This document shows, piece by piece, positions 7,693-13,490 of a stretch of DNA of 45,239 bases; position 1 is the first letter of the stretch; the number at the start of each line of letters is the position of its first letter. A program made the position numbers and the translations under genes. This stretch comes from Acidimicrobiaceae bacterium (GTDB lineage: Bacteria > Actinomycetota > Acidimicrobiia > Acidimicrobiales > Bog-793), in assembly GCA_025463965.1 (NCBI GenBank), contig JAODBN010000361.1, positions 1-45,239 on the forward strand, in the 5' to 3' direction. The notes under the pieces are model-generated. The model worked only from the letters and a program-made list of their open reading frames with translations. It made no database searches and was not told the DNA's origin.

Positions 7693-8529
7693 ATGGGGAG
7701 GACGATGGCAGACTCGGGCTATCAGGCTGGAAATCGCAGGCTATATGCAGGGAGGATGTCGAAACAGTACTCCTCGAAGGGCAGTTGGCTCGACGATGGT
7801 GAGCACGCGGCCGTGATGTCGGTCGCCAGCGAGGTTCGAGGCGGCTCGATTCTCGATATCGGCGTAGGCGCCGGCCGGACAGCTGGGCTCCTGCCGATGT
7901 TGTCAGACAAGTACGTCGCCGTCGACTATTCGGAAGCGTTGGCGGAGCTGGCACGGGCCGCGTACCCGAACCTCGACATCCGGTTCGGCGATGCCACTGA
8001 CCTCCCGCCTGATCTCCCTGGTAACCCCTTCCGGCTTGTGGTGTTCTCCTATAACGGCATCGACACCCTCGGCCATGTAGGACGTACCCAAGTCCTCGGC
8101 CAGGTCGCCAAAGTGCTTGAGCCAGGGGGATGGTTCGTCTATTCGACGCTGAATCGGGCCGGCCCCTACTTCGACGAGAAGCCGTGGCAGCGCTCGCCCG
8201 ATACGACCCGAAGCACCCCGGAACGGTTCGCCCGCTGGCTGGCTCACCTTGGACTACATCCCGACGACTACTGGCGGCGCTGGTCCTCCTGGTGGCGGCT
8301 ACGAAACAGCCTGGAGGACCACGGCGAATGGGCGGTCGGCCCCCTCGGCGGTCCGGGCTCAGGCTTGGTCGTCCATTGGACCACCCCAACTGCCACCCGG
8401 CAAGAACTCGCCACAGCAGGCCTTGAGCTCATCGCAGCTTTCGAGGAGGACGGTACTCCCATCCACCCGCTCGACGGCCAGACTTCGGCACCGGTGTTCC
8501 ACGTTGTCGCCCGACGTCCTCGGGACTGA
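7693..8529 (+). CDS. Class I SAM-dependent methyltransferase
   Basis: Motif I ILDIGVGAGRTAG and a post-I acidic residue (AVDYS). LEPGGWFVYST is typical of Methyltransf_11/25-type proteins. An alternative ATG at 7705 exists. Confidence 0.75.
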   Translation: MGRTMADSGYQAGNRRLYAGRMSKQYSSKGSWLDDGEHAAVMSVASEVRGGSILDIGVGAGRTAGLLPMLSDKYVAVDYSEALAELARAAYPNLDIRFGDATDLPPDLPGNPFRLVVFSYNGIDTLGHVGRTQVLGQVAKVLEPGGWFVYSTLNRAGPYFDEKPWQRSPDTTRSTPERFARWLAHLGLHPDDYWRRWSSWWRLRNSLEDHGEWAVGPLGGPGSGLVVHWTTPTATRQELATAGLELIAAFEEDGTPIHPLDGQTSAPVFHVVARRPRD

Positions 8530-9027
8530 CGCTCGACTGGCAACCCGCGGGCTTTCCTCGCACACGAGCAATCAGTGGCCGAATGGCGCGCCGTTCTTTT
8601 GCCCAGTGGGGATGAACTCAAGGTGGTTCATGAACACCTTGCCGTTTCTGCTCCCGTTCGCCTTAGGACCGGGAGCTGCCGACCAATGGAGTTCCGACAG
8701 AGGGGCGCCTCGCGCTTATAGGTGGGCAGCGTCTGGCGCTTACCCTTCTTCTCGATTAGCCCGTGGCGAACGCGGCAGAGGACAGCGGCAGAGGTGAAGT
8801 TCGCTGGCAGCGGCTCGAGGCCCTCGACCGCGCTGGTGTTCAAGACGAGTGGCTCCAGCTTGGACGCATGCGCCGCGGCTCGACCAAGCGTGTCTCGACC
8901 CCGGCCCGCATCTGGCGTGGCGGCGAGCGAGGTCGATGCGATGGACCGCCCGAACCGAGACGGTCCAGGCGGTTATCGGGTGAGGCCTGGCTGATCCGCC
9001 ATCGGCGGAATCGCTGTCGACGCCTGC

Positions 9028-10173
9028 TCAATAGGAGACTACGGAAAGGGCGAACTGGCGGTCGCCGTTGCGCTCGGCACAGGTCAGCTCGCCGGAGGCG
9101 ACGGCGACCAGCCGCTCGAAGATACGTTCGCCCATCGTCTCGACCGACTCGTCCCCAGCGAGGATGACCCCAGCGTCGAGGTCGATGTCGCCGGGAAGGC
9201 GGCCATAGGCATTGCTGTTGGTGGCGATCTTGAAGCAGGGTGCCACCGGCGAGCCGGTCGGGGTCCCGCGGCCGGTAGTGAAGGCGACGAGTTGGGCGCC
9301 GCCGGCGACCATGCCCACCATCTGTTCGATGTCGTGGCCGGGGGTGTCCATAATGTAAAGGCCGTTGCCGGGGCAGGCCTCGGCGAACCCGAGTACCCCG
9401 CTCACCGGCGCGTTGCCACCCTTCTTGGCCGAGCCGAGAGCCTTCTCCTCGATTGTGGTCAGCCCCCCGGCCTGGTTCCCCGGAGTCGGCTGGGCGTTGC
9501 GCACGTCGACGCCGAGGTCGCGGATCGCCTGCTCGAAGTTGAAGATCACCTCCCGAATCGCCGTCGCGACGTCGGGTGAGACCGCCCGGGCACAGAGCGC
9601 CTCTTCCGCGCCGATCAACTCGGGGATCTCCGCGAGGATGGCGCTGCCGCCAGCGGCGACCAGCTTGTCACTCGCCACCCCGAGAGCGGGATTGGCCGTG
9701 ATCCCAGAGAGGGCGTCCGATCCGCCGCACTCGAGCCCGAGCACCAGGCGAGCCACCTCGACTGGCTGTCGCTCGAAGCCCAGCGCCTCGGCTACGAGCT
9801 CTTTAGCGAACGCCCGGGCGGCGGCCGCGGCCCCAATGGTTCCGCGGTGGCGGGCCAGCGTGACGAATTCGACGCGCGGCCCCCGCCCGGAAAGGGCGTC
9901 AGCCAGCCAGGCGTCATCGTCGCTCAGGCCGAGTACGACGACCCCGGTGACGTTTGGGTTCGAGGCAAAGCCGATGAGGGTGCGGCGCACCCGGTCGGCA
10001 TCGACGGCGTCGGGGTGCTCGAGCTCCTGGGGGACGTCGACGGCTCCATGGAGATCCTCGACAGCCAGGCGCGCCGCGACGTTGGCGACCGAGCTCGTCG
10101 CCAGCACAATCACGTGGTTGCGCACCCCGACGCGACCGTCCGGCCGGACGTAGCCGGGGAAGGTCTCGCTCAC
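9028..10173 (-). CDS. UxaA/GarD-family dehydratase large subunit (SuyB-like; catalytic C-terminal domain intact, N-domain Cys/His motifs lost)
   Basis: Contains LECGGSDALSGITANPALG, PTPGNQAGGLTTIEEKALGSAKKGG and FTTGRGTPTGSP, the hallmark blocks of altronate/galactarate dehydratase C-terminal domains. Its ATGA start overlaps the upstream gene's stop. Confidence 0.85.
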   Translation of the reverse strand: MSETFPGYVRPDGRVGVRNHVIVLATSSVANVAARLAVEDLHGAVDVPQELEHPDAVDADRVRRTLIGFASNPNVTGVVVLGLSDDDAWLADALSGRGPRVEFVTLARHRGTIGAAAAARAFAKELVAEALGFERQPVEVARLVLGLECGGSDALSGITANPALGVASDKLVAAGGSAILAEIPELIGAEEALCARAVSPDVATAIREVIFNFEQAIRDLGVDVRNAQPTPGNQAGGLTTIEEKALGSAKKGGNAPVSGVLGFAEACPGNGLYIMDTPGHDIEQMVGMVAGGAQLVAFTTGRGTPTGSPVAPCFKIATNSNAYGRLPGDIDLDAGVILAGDESVETMGERIFERLVAVASGELTCAERNGDRQFALSVVSY

Positions 10174-11027
10174 ATCGACCTCGTCAGGCGTCGGAGGGTG
10201 AATTCGGCTGCCCCACGCCGCTCCGCCGCCGTTGCCCCGCCGTTGAAGACCGAGCAGGCGGCGGTGATCAGCTGATCGGCGATCAGCTCAGGGTCCATGG
10301 CGTTGTCCCCGTCCGGCCCGAGATCGAAGTCCTCGCCGAGCGCAGCGAACAGGGAGGCGTCGGAACTCACCGAGAGGACCGGGCAGGTGGCGAAGCTGCG
10401 CGGACCCTCCCCAGGTCCGCACGATGCGACGATCACCTGCGCTCCGGCGGAGGCGAGTTCGGCGTGGCACAACTCGCCGAAAGGTCCAGGGGTATCGGGA
10501 AGCAGAAGGGTCATTCCCACGTCCTCGGCGCGCTCGGCCAGCTCGTGGGCGAAGGGGGCTCTCGGGTCGTCGAGACCGACCCGCAGGGCGACAAGGGGGG
10601 CCGTGGCTCGCTCGGCGACGGCAGCTTCGTCGAGCAGCGCCTCGAGCAGGTGCAGGCCACGCTCGACCGTCGCCGCGGAGCCGCCGCATTCCTGAATCCC
10701 GACAAACTCGACACGCTGGCCCTCGGCGCGGATCGCCTCGGCAAGGCCGTCCCCGCCGATCGTCTCGCAGCCAAGGCCGACGACGAGCACGCTGGCAACG
10801 TTCGGGTGGGCCGCGACGCCAATGAACAACCGCGAAGTGAGCGCGACGTCGTCTCCGACTTGGCCGCAGCCGTGTTGATGGGTGACGGCGACAGCAGCCG
10901 AGCCTGCGATCTGGCGGGCGACGCGAGTCGAGCAGACGACGGAAGGGAGGACGAGCACGTGGTTGCGTGCCCCGACCGCCCCCCCGTCACGGTGGTAGCC
11001 GAAGAGCGTTTCGGCGGGGCTTGTCAT
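10170..11027 (-). CDS. UxaA-family paralogue, short form (N-domain HQHGCGQ and GLGCE motifs kept, catalytic middle blocks missing)
   Basis: 285 aa. It starts like UxaA after the SAF domain (GYHRDGGAVGARNHVLVLPSVVC) and keeps THQHGCGQVGDD and VVGLGCE. It lacks the CGGSD/PGN..GGLTT blocks. The tail AGAQVIVASCGPGEGP parallels GGAQLVAFTTGRGTP of the neighbouring gene. 4-nt overlaps on both sides. Confidence 0.75.
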   Translation of the reverse strand: MTSPAETLFGYHRDGGAVGARNHVLVLPSVVCSTRVARQIAGSAAVAVTHQHGCGQVGDDVALTSRLFIGVAAHPNVASVLVVGLGCETIGGDGLAEAIRAEGQRVEFVGIQECGGSAATVERGLHLLEALLDEAAVAERATAPLVALRVGLDDPRAPFAHELAERAEDVGMTLLLPDTPGPFGELCHAELASAGAQVIVASCGPGEGPRSFATCPVLSVSSDASLFAALGEDFDLGPDGDNAMDPELIADQLITAACSVFNGGATAAERRGAAEFTLRRLTRSM

Positions 11028-11407
11028 CGCCGGCCGTCCAGCTCGGCGGAATGTTCGGCGTCCGAGCCGGGAAGGCGGGCGCTCACGACGTTGTGGATGT
11101 GGACATGACAGCCGGGAGCGATCGGAGCGGTAGCAACGCCGATCACCTCCCCATACTTGCGCACGACCCCGCCACGGGCGATCGGGACGAGCGCCACCTT
11201 ATGGCCGAAGCCGATCTCCTCGGAGACGACGAGCTCGCCGTTGCCTTGTCCGAGCATGAGGAGTTCCCCTGGTCGCAGCGGTAGGAGCGCCACGGCGACA
11301 TTGTCCGTATCGTCGAGGCGCAGCACTCGCGGCGGCAGCGCGGGACTTTCCCCACCGTCTTGGCTCAGCCGCTGAGTAGAAGACGACGTGCTCGCCGGCT
11401 CAGTCAT
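11024..11407 (-). CDS. SAF-domain small subunit of UxaA/SuyA type
   Basis: 127 aa. DNVAVALLPLRPGE...GFGHKVALVPIARGGVVRKYGEVIGVATAPIAPGCHVHIHN matches the N-terminal SAF domain of altronate dehydratase. It is the first gene of a translationally coupled three-gene operon. Confidence 0.8.
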   Translation of the reverse strand: MTEPASTSSSTQRLSQDGGESPALPPRVLRLDDTDNVAVALLPLRPGELLMLGQGNGELVVSEEIGFGHKVALVPIARGGVVRKYGEVIGVATAPIAPGCHVHIHNVVSARLPGSDAEHSAELDGRR

Positions 11408-11446
11408 CGCCCCCCAAGTAGGTAGTAGTTCGTATTGCAGATCCTA

Positions 11447-11463
11447 TTGAGGCGAAGCCTCAA
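11447..11463. promoter_or_regulatory. 17-bp perfect palindrome TTGAGGCGAAGCCTCAA between the RibD_C remnant and the UxaA-like operon
   Basis: Read directly: 7-bp arms with a 3-nt centre, inside a locally AT-richer stretch about 40 nt upstream of the SAF gene ATG. It could be an operator or a short terminator hairpin (CAACTTTTCTC follows on the + strand). Confidence 0.4.
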
Positions 11464-11485
11464 CAACTTTTCTCGCCCGCGTGGG

Positions 11486-11956
11486 TCAAGAGGCGACGTT
11501 ACCGCCCATCAGGCTTACCGCCGTCTGACACCCGGTCTGGCGAGGCGCTGATGACTCGGCGGAGCCAGTCCGACTCATCGCGGCGCGCCCGTAGCGCTCA
11601 TAGATCACGCGCGAACTGAACGTCCTGGTCTCCACCACGACTAGCCGAACGTCTTCGGTGAGCGGCGGTAGGAATGGCGTGCCGCCACCGACGAGGACCG
11701 GATTGCGAAACATGCGGAGCTCGTCAACGAGGCCGAGCTCGATCGCTGCCGCGGCCAAACCGGCGCCGCCGATCGATACGTCTTTGTCGGTCGCATCGAG
11801 CGCCGCAGCGGCCTCCTCGGCCACCGATACCTCGGCGAGCCGGGCGTTGACTTGAACGCTGTCGAGCGTGCGGGCCTCTTCCATCGTCAATTTATCGCGT
11901 ACGGGGCCCTTGCAACTAGACCGTCTCCATACTGCACAATCGCCATTCCAGACCAC
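11486..11956 (-). pseudogene. RibD_C/dihydrofolate-reductase-family remnant (N-terminal part missing)
   Basis: Only the C-terminal part of the fold is recognisable (DKDVSIGGAGLAAAAIELGLVDELRMFRNPVLVGGGTPFLP...VIYERYGR). The N-terminal LDG/GR.TYE part seen in full-length members is absent, and the divergent monooxygenase gene leaves no room for it. An odd C-terminal extension of about 35 aa follows YERYGR. Confidence 0.5.
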
Positions 11957-12014
11957 AGATGTGGAACATCGGGATCAGGTGGCACTTCACCGAAGAGGGT
12001 CGTCACCCCTACGC

Positions 12015-13490
12015 ATGCGAGGTGCAGTGAACAAGCCCGAACACGAGGTCGTGATCGCAGGCGGAGGGCCAACCGGGATGATGCTGGCGGCTGAACTAGC
12101 GCTGGCGAAAGTAGACGTGGTGGTGGTCGAACGGCGCCCCGATCACGTCCTCATCGGCTCACGCGCTGGCGGCTTTCACTGCCGCACTGTCGAGGTTCTC
12201 GATCAGCGGGGTGTCGCTGACCGCTTCCTGACACAGGGCAACGTGGCGCAAATCGCGACGTTTGGGGCCACCGTTTTGGACATGAGCGACTTCCCGACGC
12301 GCCATCCGTATTCGCTCGGCATTCGGCAGAACCAGGTCGAGCAGATCATGGCCACCTGGATCGCCGAGCTACCCGTGCGCTTCATTCACGGATGTGAGGT
12401 GGCCGGGTTCGCGCAGGACGACACCGGGGTGCAGGTGCGACTCGTGGACAGTGAAACGCTGCGCGCCAAGTATCTCGTCGGCTGCGACGGAGGGCGCAGC
12501 GTGATCCGCAAAGCGGCCGGCATCGAGTTCCCGGGCTGGGACCCGACTAGGAGCAACCTCATTGCAGAGGTCGAGGTCAGCGAGGAACCACCGCGGGGCG
12601 TTCGTTATGACGCGACGGGCGTCCACGGCCTTCACCGGTTGGACGATGGCAAGACGTACCGCGTGATCGTGACCGAGCGGCAGCTCGGGTCAAGCAGCGA
12701 GCCGACCCTGAACGATCTGAGCGAGGCGCTCGTCGCCGTGTTCGGCACCGACTTCGGTATCCACAGCCCCACGTGGATTTCGAGGTTCACCGATATGACT
12801 CGACAGGCCGCGGCCTATCGCGCGGATCGTGTCCTGCTGGCAGGGGACGCTGCGCACGTCCATTATCCGGCGGGTGGACAGGGCCTCAGCCTTGGTGTGC
12901 AGGACGCGGTGAACCTTGGATGGAAGCTCGCTCAGGTCGTCAAGGGGATCTCCCCGGCGAGCCTCCTCGATACCTACCACGCAGAGCGTCACCCGATCGG
13001 CGCACGCGCGCTTAAGCACACGATGGCGCAAGGTGCGCTCCAGCGCCGTGACGACCGCATGGAAGCTCTAGTCGAAGTGGTGTCGGAGCTGGCGACCATG
13101 GACGAGCCTCGAAGGCGACTCGCTGGAATCATGTCCGGGCTCGATATCCACTATGACCTCGGCGAGGGACATCCCCTACTCGGGCGCCGCATGCCCGATC
13201 TCGACGTGGTCACGGCAGACAGAGCACTCCGAGTCTTCGAGTTGCTGCACGGCGCACGACCACTGCTGCTCAACCTCGGTCGGCCCGGCGACCTTGATGT
13301 CGCTCAGTGGGCCGACCGGGTCCAGCTCATAGACGCCAGTTACGAACGCGAGTGGGAGCTTCCCGTGCTGGGCGTCGTCAGTAGCCCGACGGCTGTGCTG
13401 GTTCGTCCGGACGGCTACGTCGCCTGGGTGGGAGAGGGCACCGAACGAGGCCTCATCGATGCGCTTACGACGTGGTTCGGATCGCCGTGA
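12015..13490 (+). CDS. Group A FAD-dependent monooxygenase, Rox (rifamycin monooxygenase)-like
   Basis: GXGXXG block VVIAGGGPTGMMLAAELA, then CDGGRSVIRK, LAGDAAHVHYPAGGQGLSLGVQDAVNLGWKLA, LLDTYHAERHP, YDLGEGHPLLGRRMPDL, and the C-terminal VLVRPDGYVAWVG...WFG. The track ORF starts at 11868; I trimmed it to ATG 12015. GTG 12027 is also possible. Confidence 0.8.
   Translation: MRGAVNKPEHEVVIAGGGPTGMMLAAELALAKVDVVVVERRPDHVLIGSRAGGFHCRTVEVLDQRGVADRFLTQGNVAQIATFGATVLDMSDFPTRHPYSLGIRQNQVEQIMATWIAELPVRFIHGCEVAGFAQDDTGVQVRLVDSETLRAKYLVGCDGGRSVIRKAAGIEFPGWDPTRSNLIAEVEVSEEPPRGVRYDATGVHGLHRLDDGKTYRVIVTERQLGSSSEPTLNDLSEALVAVFGTDFGIHSPTWISRFTDMTRQAAAYRADRVLLAGDAAHVHYPAGGQGLSLGVQDAVNLGWKLAQVVKGISPASLLDTYHAERHPIGARALKHTMAQGALQRRDDRMEALVEVVSELATMDEPRRRLAGIMSGLDIHYDLGEGHPLLGRRMPDLDVVTADRALRVFELLHGARPLLLNLGRPGDLDVAQWADRVQLIDASYEREWELPVLGVVSSPTAVLVRPDGYVAWVGEGTERGLIDALTTWFGSP

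Follow-up and report, generated by a model that had tools for sequence, protein, structure and literature searches.

A contig of 45,239 nucleotides from an Acidimicrobiaceae bacterium (JAODBN010000361.1 of assembly GCA_025463965.1; its whole length is referred to below as the window) carries on its minus strand a compact operon of three genes related to the UxaA and GarD dehydratases (Table 1). The first gene encodes a small SAF-domain subunit, and the other two encode paralogous proteins of different length, here termed the short and the large paralogue. Inspection of the sequence bore out the layout given in the initial annotation, including the three protein lengths and the 4-nt overlaps: the stop codon of the SAF gene and the start codon of the short gene share an ATGA junction (GGCGATGACAAG), and the short and large genes are joined likewise by a GTGA junction (GTCGATGTGAGC). 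A GGGGGG ribosome-binding site lies 4 nt 5′ of the ATG of the SAF gene.

Table 1. Coordinates of the three operon genes and their leader in the window.
Feature	Position	Strand	Basis
SAF small subunit, 127 aa, first gene of the operon	11024..11407	-	Pfam SAF PF08666 (beta-clip), 6.8e-11
Short UxaA paralogue, 285 aa	10170..11027	-	open reading frame list, Pfam
Large UxaA paralogue, 381 aa	9028..10173	-	open reading frame list, Pfam
Operon leader, 78 bp, with inverted repeat	11408..11485		sequence

By domain content, the operon belongs to the UxaA/GarD superfamily (COG2721), with the SAF domain (PF08666) present as a separate chain. The short paralogue matches GD_AH_second (PF04295) with 130.9 bits (4.2e-38, cut-off 27.3 bits) and GD_AH_C (PF20629) only over profile positions 123-238 of 242 (4.7e-7). 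The large paralogue contains a complete GD_AH_C domain (307.5 bits, 7.5e-92, profile positions 2-236 of 242) and a weaker match to GD_AH_second, which scores 72.4 bits (4.9e-20) against the same cut-off. Sequence searches identified a single relative of solved structure, E. coli GarD (PDB 6U7L), which phmmer aligned with residues 4-363 of the large paralogue (1.4e-44).

Examination of the motifs revealed that the two paralogues complement each other, and all motifs quoted for them in the initial annotation are present exactly as written. The second domain of the short paralogue is intact. It carries FGYHRDGGAVGARNH, HQHGCGQVGDD (residues 50-60) and GLGCE (85-88), and retains Cys32, His50-Gln-His-Gly-Cys54, Asp60, Cys87-Glu88, Gln112 and Gly115-Gly116; the CGGSD, PGN..GGLTT, FTTGRG and EEK blocks are absent from its sequence. 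In its second domain the large paralogue carries PGYVRPDGRVGVRNH, PQELEHPDAV (48-57) and GLSDDD (82-87), and lacks the first three family cysteines (Cys1-3) together with the HxHGC and GLGCE blocks. Its catalytic blocks comprise CGGSD (149-153, beginning with Cys149), PGNQAGGLTT (231-240), FTTGRG (298-303) and Lys315, and further catalytic residues are found at PGN231-233, GG236-237, EEK242-244 and DTPG.DIE276-283. Pfam profiles and family alignment agreed on the losses that had been noted for each copy, namely the catalytic blocks in the short paralogue and Cys1-3 in the large one.

The distribution of the cysteines deserves attention because four of them are conserved across the superfamily except in sulfolactate sulfo-lyase (SuyAB) and have been proposed to form one mononuclear rubredoxin-like iron site, while electron paramagnetic resonance signals are reminiscent of a [3Fe-4S] cluster as well (Watanabe et al. 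2019, PMC6336799). The D-arabinonate dehydratase C785_RS13685 has them at Cys134/173/208/276 (Watanabe et al. 2019, PMC6336799), and the spacing in the operon matches, with Cys32, Cys54 and Cys87 of the short paralogue followed by Cys149 of the large one, which by spacing makes the CGGSD cysteine the fourth. Possession of all four in one polypeptide, a trait of the superfamily, is seen in no single chain of the operon; the operon as a whole has all four.

The three-gene arrangement described in the initial annotation recurs well beyond the window. We collected 80 related loci from species-representative genomes with the short-family peptide patterns HQHGC.[QHE]VG and VV[GS]LGCET[IV], a choice that biases the two-gene comparison set towards close relatives, and classed their open reading frames by script on similarity and motif. 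The SAF-short-large order was found in 45 of the 80, usually with overlapping or abutting ends, and in these 45 loci the short paralogue has HxxGC and lacks CGGSD and TTGRG whereas the large paralogue shows the opposite, a repetition that exceeds chance. The ordinary two-gene form, in which one large subunit holds both motif sets, was represented by 39 loci (including 7 from the first scan). The three-gene loci come from Thermoleophilia (Conexibacter, Baekduia and Solirubrobacteraceae), Acidimicrobiia and Actinomycetes (Gordonia, Nocardia vaccinii and Nanopelagicales), and beyond these classes from one Chloroflexota metagenome-assembled genome (MAG), two ANGP1 MAGs and three unclassified bacterial MAGs. 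Two of these loci, L041 and L042, belong to MAGs named 'Bifidobacterium breve'; they are near-identical to loci of freshwater Nanopelagicales MAGs and fall into the same groups in both trees described below, so that the species label is probably wrong.

Residue by residue, 46 short, 46 three-gene large and 39 two-gene large sequences were aligned with GarD residues 122-504. The second-domain set (C147, H178-Q-H-G-C182, D190, C218-E219, Q247 and G252-G253 in GarD numbering) is conserved at 95-100% in the two-gene large subunits and at 85-100%, most positions at 100%, in the short paralogues; it is mostly lost from the three-gene large paralogues, where His178 (91%) and Asp190 (83%) remain. The C-domain set exceeds 40 positions (C291GGSD, N303-P, D311, E324, E327, GAEH, R338, E356, D364, P370-x-x-G-N374, G377-G378, E383-E-K385, K392, DTPG.DIE, FTTGRG, K456, N460 and D472). 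It is conserved in the two-gene large subunits, reaches about 98-100% in the three-gene large paralogues, for which a separate alignment (A2) gave the invariant catalytic residues, and is deleted or diverged in the short paralogues, the one in the window retaining only P216, D235, G263, T266, E269 and R280. Retention of all catalytic and Cys residues by both paralogues, which would have spoken against a division of labour, was therefore not what the alignment revealed. No other GD_AH_C gene able to supply the missing parts was found in the genome of the window, a 3.5-Mb MAG that is 77% complete.

At the level of genomes the operon is patchily distributed: among 18 genomes of the GTDB family to which the window belongs, the trio occurs in 2, the two-gene form in 1 and no relative in 12. 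A phylum survey with the short profile gave a full-length match in the genome of the window only and matches to the second-domain part alone in 40 other genomes, and these counts do not translate into a prevalence since diverged short paralogues, such as those of Nanopelagicales at ~35% identity, may align only partly.

To place the two paralogues relative to the two-gene enzymes, trees of the second domain (IQ-TREE, 147 columns) and of the catalytic domain were inferred, as quick searches on short alignments. In the second-domain tree the short paralogues form one clade (81 in the Shimodaira-Hasegawa-like approximate likelihood ratio test, SH-aLRT), the three-gene large paralogues form another (100), and the two clades are sisters (84). 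This pair is nested within two-gene large subunits, the nearest being from Thermomicrobiales and Gaiellales. The short and large subtrees mirror each other, with the same groups on both sides (the window with L001 and L002; L014, L017 and L018; L034 and L038; Nanopelagicales; and the ANGP1 group), and pairwise identities among short and among large paralogues are correlated (Spearman 0.67). The sister clades and mirrored subtrees point to a single duplication, after which the two copies were inherited together. In the catalytic-domain tree the three-gene large paralogues group with five actinobacterial two-gene enzymes, and their monophyly was not rejected there by the approximately unbiased (AU) test (p = 0.38).

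The two copies have since evolved under reciprocal constraint. Mean pairwise identity in the second domain is 46% for the short and 41% for the large paralogues, the short being higher in 824 of 990 pairs, while in the C-terminal half it is 57% for the large and 38% for the short, the large being higher in 933 of 990 pairs. Judged by these identities, constraint on each copy has loosened in the domain it has surrendered without vanishing, and such partial relaxation fits a leftover structural role. The partition after duplication that the initial annotation had put forward is thus real and old, as the sister clades and the retained motifs, conserved at 98-100% in 45 loci, indicate, but its division into metal binding on one chain and catalysis on the other is not clean, because the fourth family cysteine, in CGGSD, stays in the large subunit.

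Structure prediction with AlphaFold2 (AF2), using the family alignment as input, returned a compact model of the short paralogue with a mean predicted local distance difference test score (pLDDT) of 93.7 and a predicted TM-score of 0.92. In a Foldseek search of the PDB its only matches at E <= 0.001 were the four chains of GarD 6U7L (best TMq 0.66). The large paralogue was modelled with a pLDDT of 87.8. Its confidence drops at residues 154-157, after CGGSD, and at about 225-240, around PGN..GGLTT; in the model these look like loops that may be ordered only with metal, substrate or a partner subunit.

The short paralogue is shortened by ~100 residues relative to full-length paralogues, as would be expected if its gene were a decaying, non-functional pseudogene of a tandem duplicate. 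We reject this explanation, which the initial annotation had named as one that would undermine its proposal, as refuted by conservation: 45 loci preserve the open frame at identities as low as ~35%, the second domain changes at a lower rate in the short paralogue than in its intact partner, and the predicted fold is confident. With the short protein as query, at least 303 relatives were retrieved; among the best 120, most have lengths of 265-320 aa, and identity extends down to ~40%. The alignment of 35 short members (A1) has 31 invariant positions, including C32, H50, H52, G53, C54, D60, C87, E88, T89, Q112, G115 and G116 in the second domain as well as H188, D233, D235, E269, R271 and R280.

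Some of these short-specific invariants, e.g. His188, have no conserved counterpart at the aligned position of the large subunits, which raises the alternative that two enzymes share the SAF subunit, SAF plus large being a dehydratase and SAF plus short having a new activity at the Cys/His site (an isomerase, an epimerase or another lyase). The compact stand-alone fold predicted for the short paralogue would suit this idea, as would a natural fusion of SAF and short without the large paralogue (P0019, 372 aa, from the L019 contig of the uncultured Actinomycetota MFD00392.bin.2.295), in which the SAF stop codon is lost and the frame reads through into GYRRPTG.... We nevertheless regard it as improbable, given that the first half of the catalytic domain, with blocks that all active members conserve, is missing altogether from the short paralogue, and that strict co-divergence and co-location of short and large fit a single complex more simply. 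To our knowledge, no UxaA/GarD member with a truncation of the short type is known to be active.

The explanation we favour, with a probability of roughly 0.6, is that the trio forms one heteromeric, iron-dependent hydroxy-acid (sugar-acid) dehydratase with a single surviving composite active site. It would have originated from a two-gene ancestor (SAF plus large) by tandem duplication of the large subunit, followed by complementary losses in the two copies. The 4-nt overlaps would couple translation, such that all three chains are synthesised in concert. The short and large paralogues would pair through their homologous second domains, as in an ancestral homodimer, and the SAF subunit would dock like the N-terminal domain of the single-chain enzymes. 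In the GarD structure published by Rosas-Lemus in 2020, the second domain reportedly forms the dimer interface. The short paralogue would then contribute Cys32, Cys54 and Cys87 with the His/Asp/Glu cluster, that is, the proposed iron site of the family, and the large paralogue the entire catalytic C-terminal domain and the fourth cysteine (Cys149). One of the two ancestral active sites would survive in this way, built from both chains, with the SAF subunit, the large paralogue's degenerate second domain and the half C-domain left in the short paralogue serving as scaffold. The predicted reaction is a beta-elimination of water converting a 2,3-dihydroxy acid to a 2-keto-3-deoxy acid. Physical assembly of the three subunits, iron binding and the cross-chain site are what we infer from the complementary conserved residue sets, the single duplication, the co-divergence, the reciprocal constraint and the confident folds. 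Recurrence of the gene order in 45 loci, the lack of a further GD_AH_C gene in the 77% complete genome, the proposal of one iron site made by all four cysteines, the natural SAF-short fusion P0019 and the matching haloarchaeal pattern described below also speak for this explanation.

Two observations weigh against this explanation. There are no sugar-acid genes around the operon in the window, and a Cys-poor SuyB-like protein of the haloarchaeon Halomarina has a SAF subunit as its only partner. The large subunit of this locus lacks Cys1-3 in its second domain and keeps the fourth cysteine, the locus consisting of SAF and large genes with no third paralogue; it suggests that the fourth cysteine need not act with the other three and that a large subunit without Cys1-3 may suffice together with SAF.

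The Halomarina protein leads to the alternative that SAF and the large paralogue already make up a complete, SuyAB-like enzyme that does without the second-domain cysteines, the short paralogue being an accessory outside the active site with a metal-loading, redox-sensing, stabilising or regulatory role. The large paralogue does keep every block of the catalytic domain, and the exemption of sulfolactate sulfo-lyase from four-Cys conservation (Watanabe et al. 2019, PMC6336799) points the same way, as does Haloferax volcanii DS2, where the Cys-bearing paralogue is disrupted and the large and SAF genes are intact. We think this alternative unlikely for three reasons. In the one SuyB-like sequence available for comparison, that of Halomarina, the catalytic blocks are altered to NCATSD, PDN and ISTGQG, whereas the large paralogue of the operon has the canonical blocks of Cys-dependent enzymes. 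The invariant Cys, His, Asp and Glu residues of the short paralogue form a pattern typical of an active or metal site and go beyond the needs of a mere scaffold. Finally, short and large always occur together in the 45 sampled three-gene loci.

The Halomarina protein lies on a separate long branch in the trees. Among the plasmid-collection hits inspected for a bacterial SuyB, there were only single-chain enzymes and proteins of haloarchaea. Its locus on a plasmid of Halomarina sp. BND7 (L094, 3587-7173) contains genes for a putative sulfate exporter family transporter, SAF, the Cys-poor large subunit and an Ldh-family oxidoreductase, and is likely, as judged from its gene content, an archaeal SuyAB-type sulfolactate module; copies with 86-90% identity are found on several Haloarcula, Halomicrococcus and Natribaculum plasmids.

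A second trio was detected in haloarchaea by protein search of a plasmid collection, which revealed three adjacent genes annotated 'UxaA family hydrolase' in the order large-SAF-paralogue. Examples are Haladaptatus halobius (LIW51_RS28235-28225 on a plasmid; L093, 5001-7623) and Haloferax gibbonsii, with further cases in L098 and L099; FAH-family, zinc-dehydrogenase, enolase-superfamily and DHDPS-family genes are neighbours of the trio recorded in L093, L098 and L099. In Haladaptatus halobius the large protein reads IPTSVAASS, HQMGT and VELGIED at the three Cys positions and retains ECGGSD and FTTGRG, and the third gene (377 aa) retains SVIC, HDHGC and GLGCE and reads GIVSSDLGDST and ITGEG at the catalytic-block positions. 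The haloarchaeal trio thus resembles that of the window in having a large subunit without Cys1-3 but with CGGSD and TTGRG, and a paralogue with Cys1-3 but without CGGSD, PGN and TTGRG; in haloarchaea, as in the related bacterial loci, the SAF gene immediately precedes the gene of the Cys-bearing paralogue. It differs in gene order (large-SAF-Cys-type) and in its Cys-type paralogue, which is full length (about 375 aa) with a middle region that is degenerate, not deleted. Across Halobacteria, this Cys-type family numbers at least 395 members.

In the catalytic-domain tree the haloarchaeal large subunits stand apart from the bacterial three-gene large paralogues (branch support 97), and forcing the two together cost 27.8 log-likelihood units (AU p = 0.097). 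On this evidence an independent origin of the haloarchaeal trio is favoured, and only favoured, because a common clade was not rejected in the AU test. The Haloferax volcanii DS2 locus mentioned above lies on pHV3 (L092, 10493-11384). Compared with Haloferax gibbonsii P0245, its Cys-bearing paralogue HVO_RS21160 (226 aa as annotated) has residues 1-24 in one frame and 70-387 in another, residues 25-69 with Cys1 and HDHGC are missing, and there is an extra internal deletion of 42 residues; the adjoining large and SAF genes appear intact. The disrupted gene amounts to a natural knockout in a model archaeon.

A common geometry could underlie both trios. In the family at large, the iron (or iron-sulfur) site might span the subunit interface, three second-domain cysteines coming from one chain and the CGGSD cysteine and catalytic residues from its partner, and this geometry might have let the same loss evolve independently in Actinomycetota and haloarchaea. 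We offer this only as a tentative and rather doubtful extension of the favoured explanation. UxaA/GarD dehydratases are common in sugar-acid catabolism, their cofactor is debated and a single structure is available; Dreyer is said to have argued in 1987 for an activating Fe2+. With the second-domain cysteines and the catalytic domain on separate polypeptides, each half can be expressed, mutated and loaded with metal separately, and if the site does cross the interface, such half-enzymes would settle a decades-old question about the identity and location of the iron centre. Apart from the cofactor, the operon provides a well-sampled example in which, judging from sequence comparison, both copies of a duplicated enzyme subunit appear to have become partial and to depend on each other, possibly on two occasions. 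Current labels such as 'UxaA family hydrolase' and 'altronate dehydratase large subunit' mask that the full residue set is found in neither paralogue by itself.

The genomic context gives a general indication of function. In relatives, recurrent neighbours are LacI regulators, an aldehyde dehydrogenase directly upstream of the SAF gene, Dak1, Dak2, SDR and Gfo/Idh/MocA oxidoreductases, an FMN-dependent alpha-hydroxy-acid dehydrogenase, two FGGY kinases, a class II aldolase and a HAD phosphatase, pointing to the breakdown of a small sugar, polyol or sugar acid with no one substrate singled out. Around the operon in the window lie genes for a methyltransferase, an FAD monooxygenase and ABC transporters, along with a RibD_C remnant. 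The RibD_C match lies in the open reading frame 11486-11956 (minus strand) upstream of the operon, which covers profile positions 139-196 of 197 only and looks like a gene remnant; it overlaps the 5′ end of the divergent FAD monooxygenase gene (11868-13490).

Between this remnant and the SAF gene, the leader contains at 11447-11463 an inverted repeat, TTGAGGC-GAA-GCCTCAA on the plus strand, with 7-bp arms and a 3-nt loop, imperfect as a 17-bp palindrome. On the plus strand the repeat is followed by CAACTTTTCT, and the scan gave it a terminator-like score, but no plus-strand gene ends there. The repeat may be an operator, or a terminator for the upstream remnant gene. A scan of 8500-12000 found no sigma-70-like promoter.

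Among known enzymes, UxaA and GarD each consist of one chain, SuyAB alone is heteromeric among the four that are functionally characterised, and a predicted two-gene heteromeric L-fuconate dehydratase of Paraburkholderia mimosarum can be added (Watanabe et al. 2019, PMC6336799); the background on which the initial annotation relied, single-chain altronate and galactarate dehydratases and a two-gene SuyAB, agrees with this account. We found no published three-subunit UxaA enzyme in the full-text literature, a body of text that largely leaves out subscription journals, and within the literature covered the arrangement appears undescribed. The operon shares with the single-chain enzymes UxaA, GarD and C785_RS13685 the order of SAF, second and C-terminal domains and the same catalytic blocks, but spreads the domains over three chains and has the second domain and half of the C-domain in duplicate. 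The NCBIfam model for galactarate dehydratase (TIGR03248) scores 191.7, 34.7 and 33.4 bits for the three proteins, all below its cut-off of 730.85, and by this score the operon enzyme is not GarD.

With SuyAB (EC 4.4.1.24) and the two-gene enzyme of P. mimosarum the operon has in common a SAF domain as a separate small subunit directly upstream of a large subunit with GD_AH_second and GD_AH_C, and two-gene enzymes of Gaiellales and Thermomicrobiales are the nearest relatives of both its paralogues in the trees. Unlike these, it adds a third gene and has no single chain in which second-domain Cys/His residues and catalytic blocks occur together. It also differs from the SuyB-like Halomarina protein in keeping CGGSD, PGN and FTTGRG in place of NCATSD, PDN and ISTGQG. 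No sulfonate context (a SuyZ-type exporter, ComC/SlcC dehydrogenases or hps genes) is present near the operon in the window, and this, together with the three genes and the canonical catalytic blocks, argues that the operon is not SuyAB.

A parallel outside the superfamily is the fungal V-ATPase ring, in which Vma3 and Vma11 reportedly became parts of an obligate hetero-oligomer by duplication and complementary loss, as Finnigan et al. are said to have described in 2012. As in that ring, where reciprocal losses make both copies necessary, the gene of a self-associating subunit was duplicated in the operon; unlike there, the losses here did not concern interface specificities but took entire functional blocks out of separate enzyme domains.

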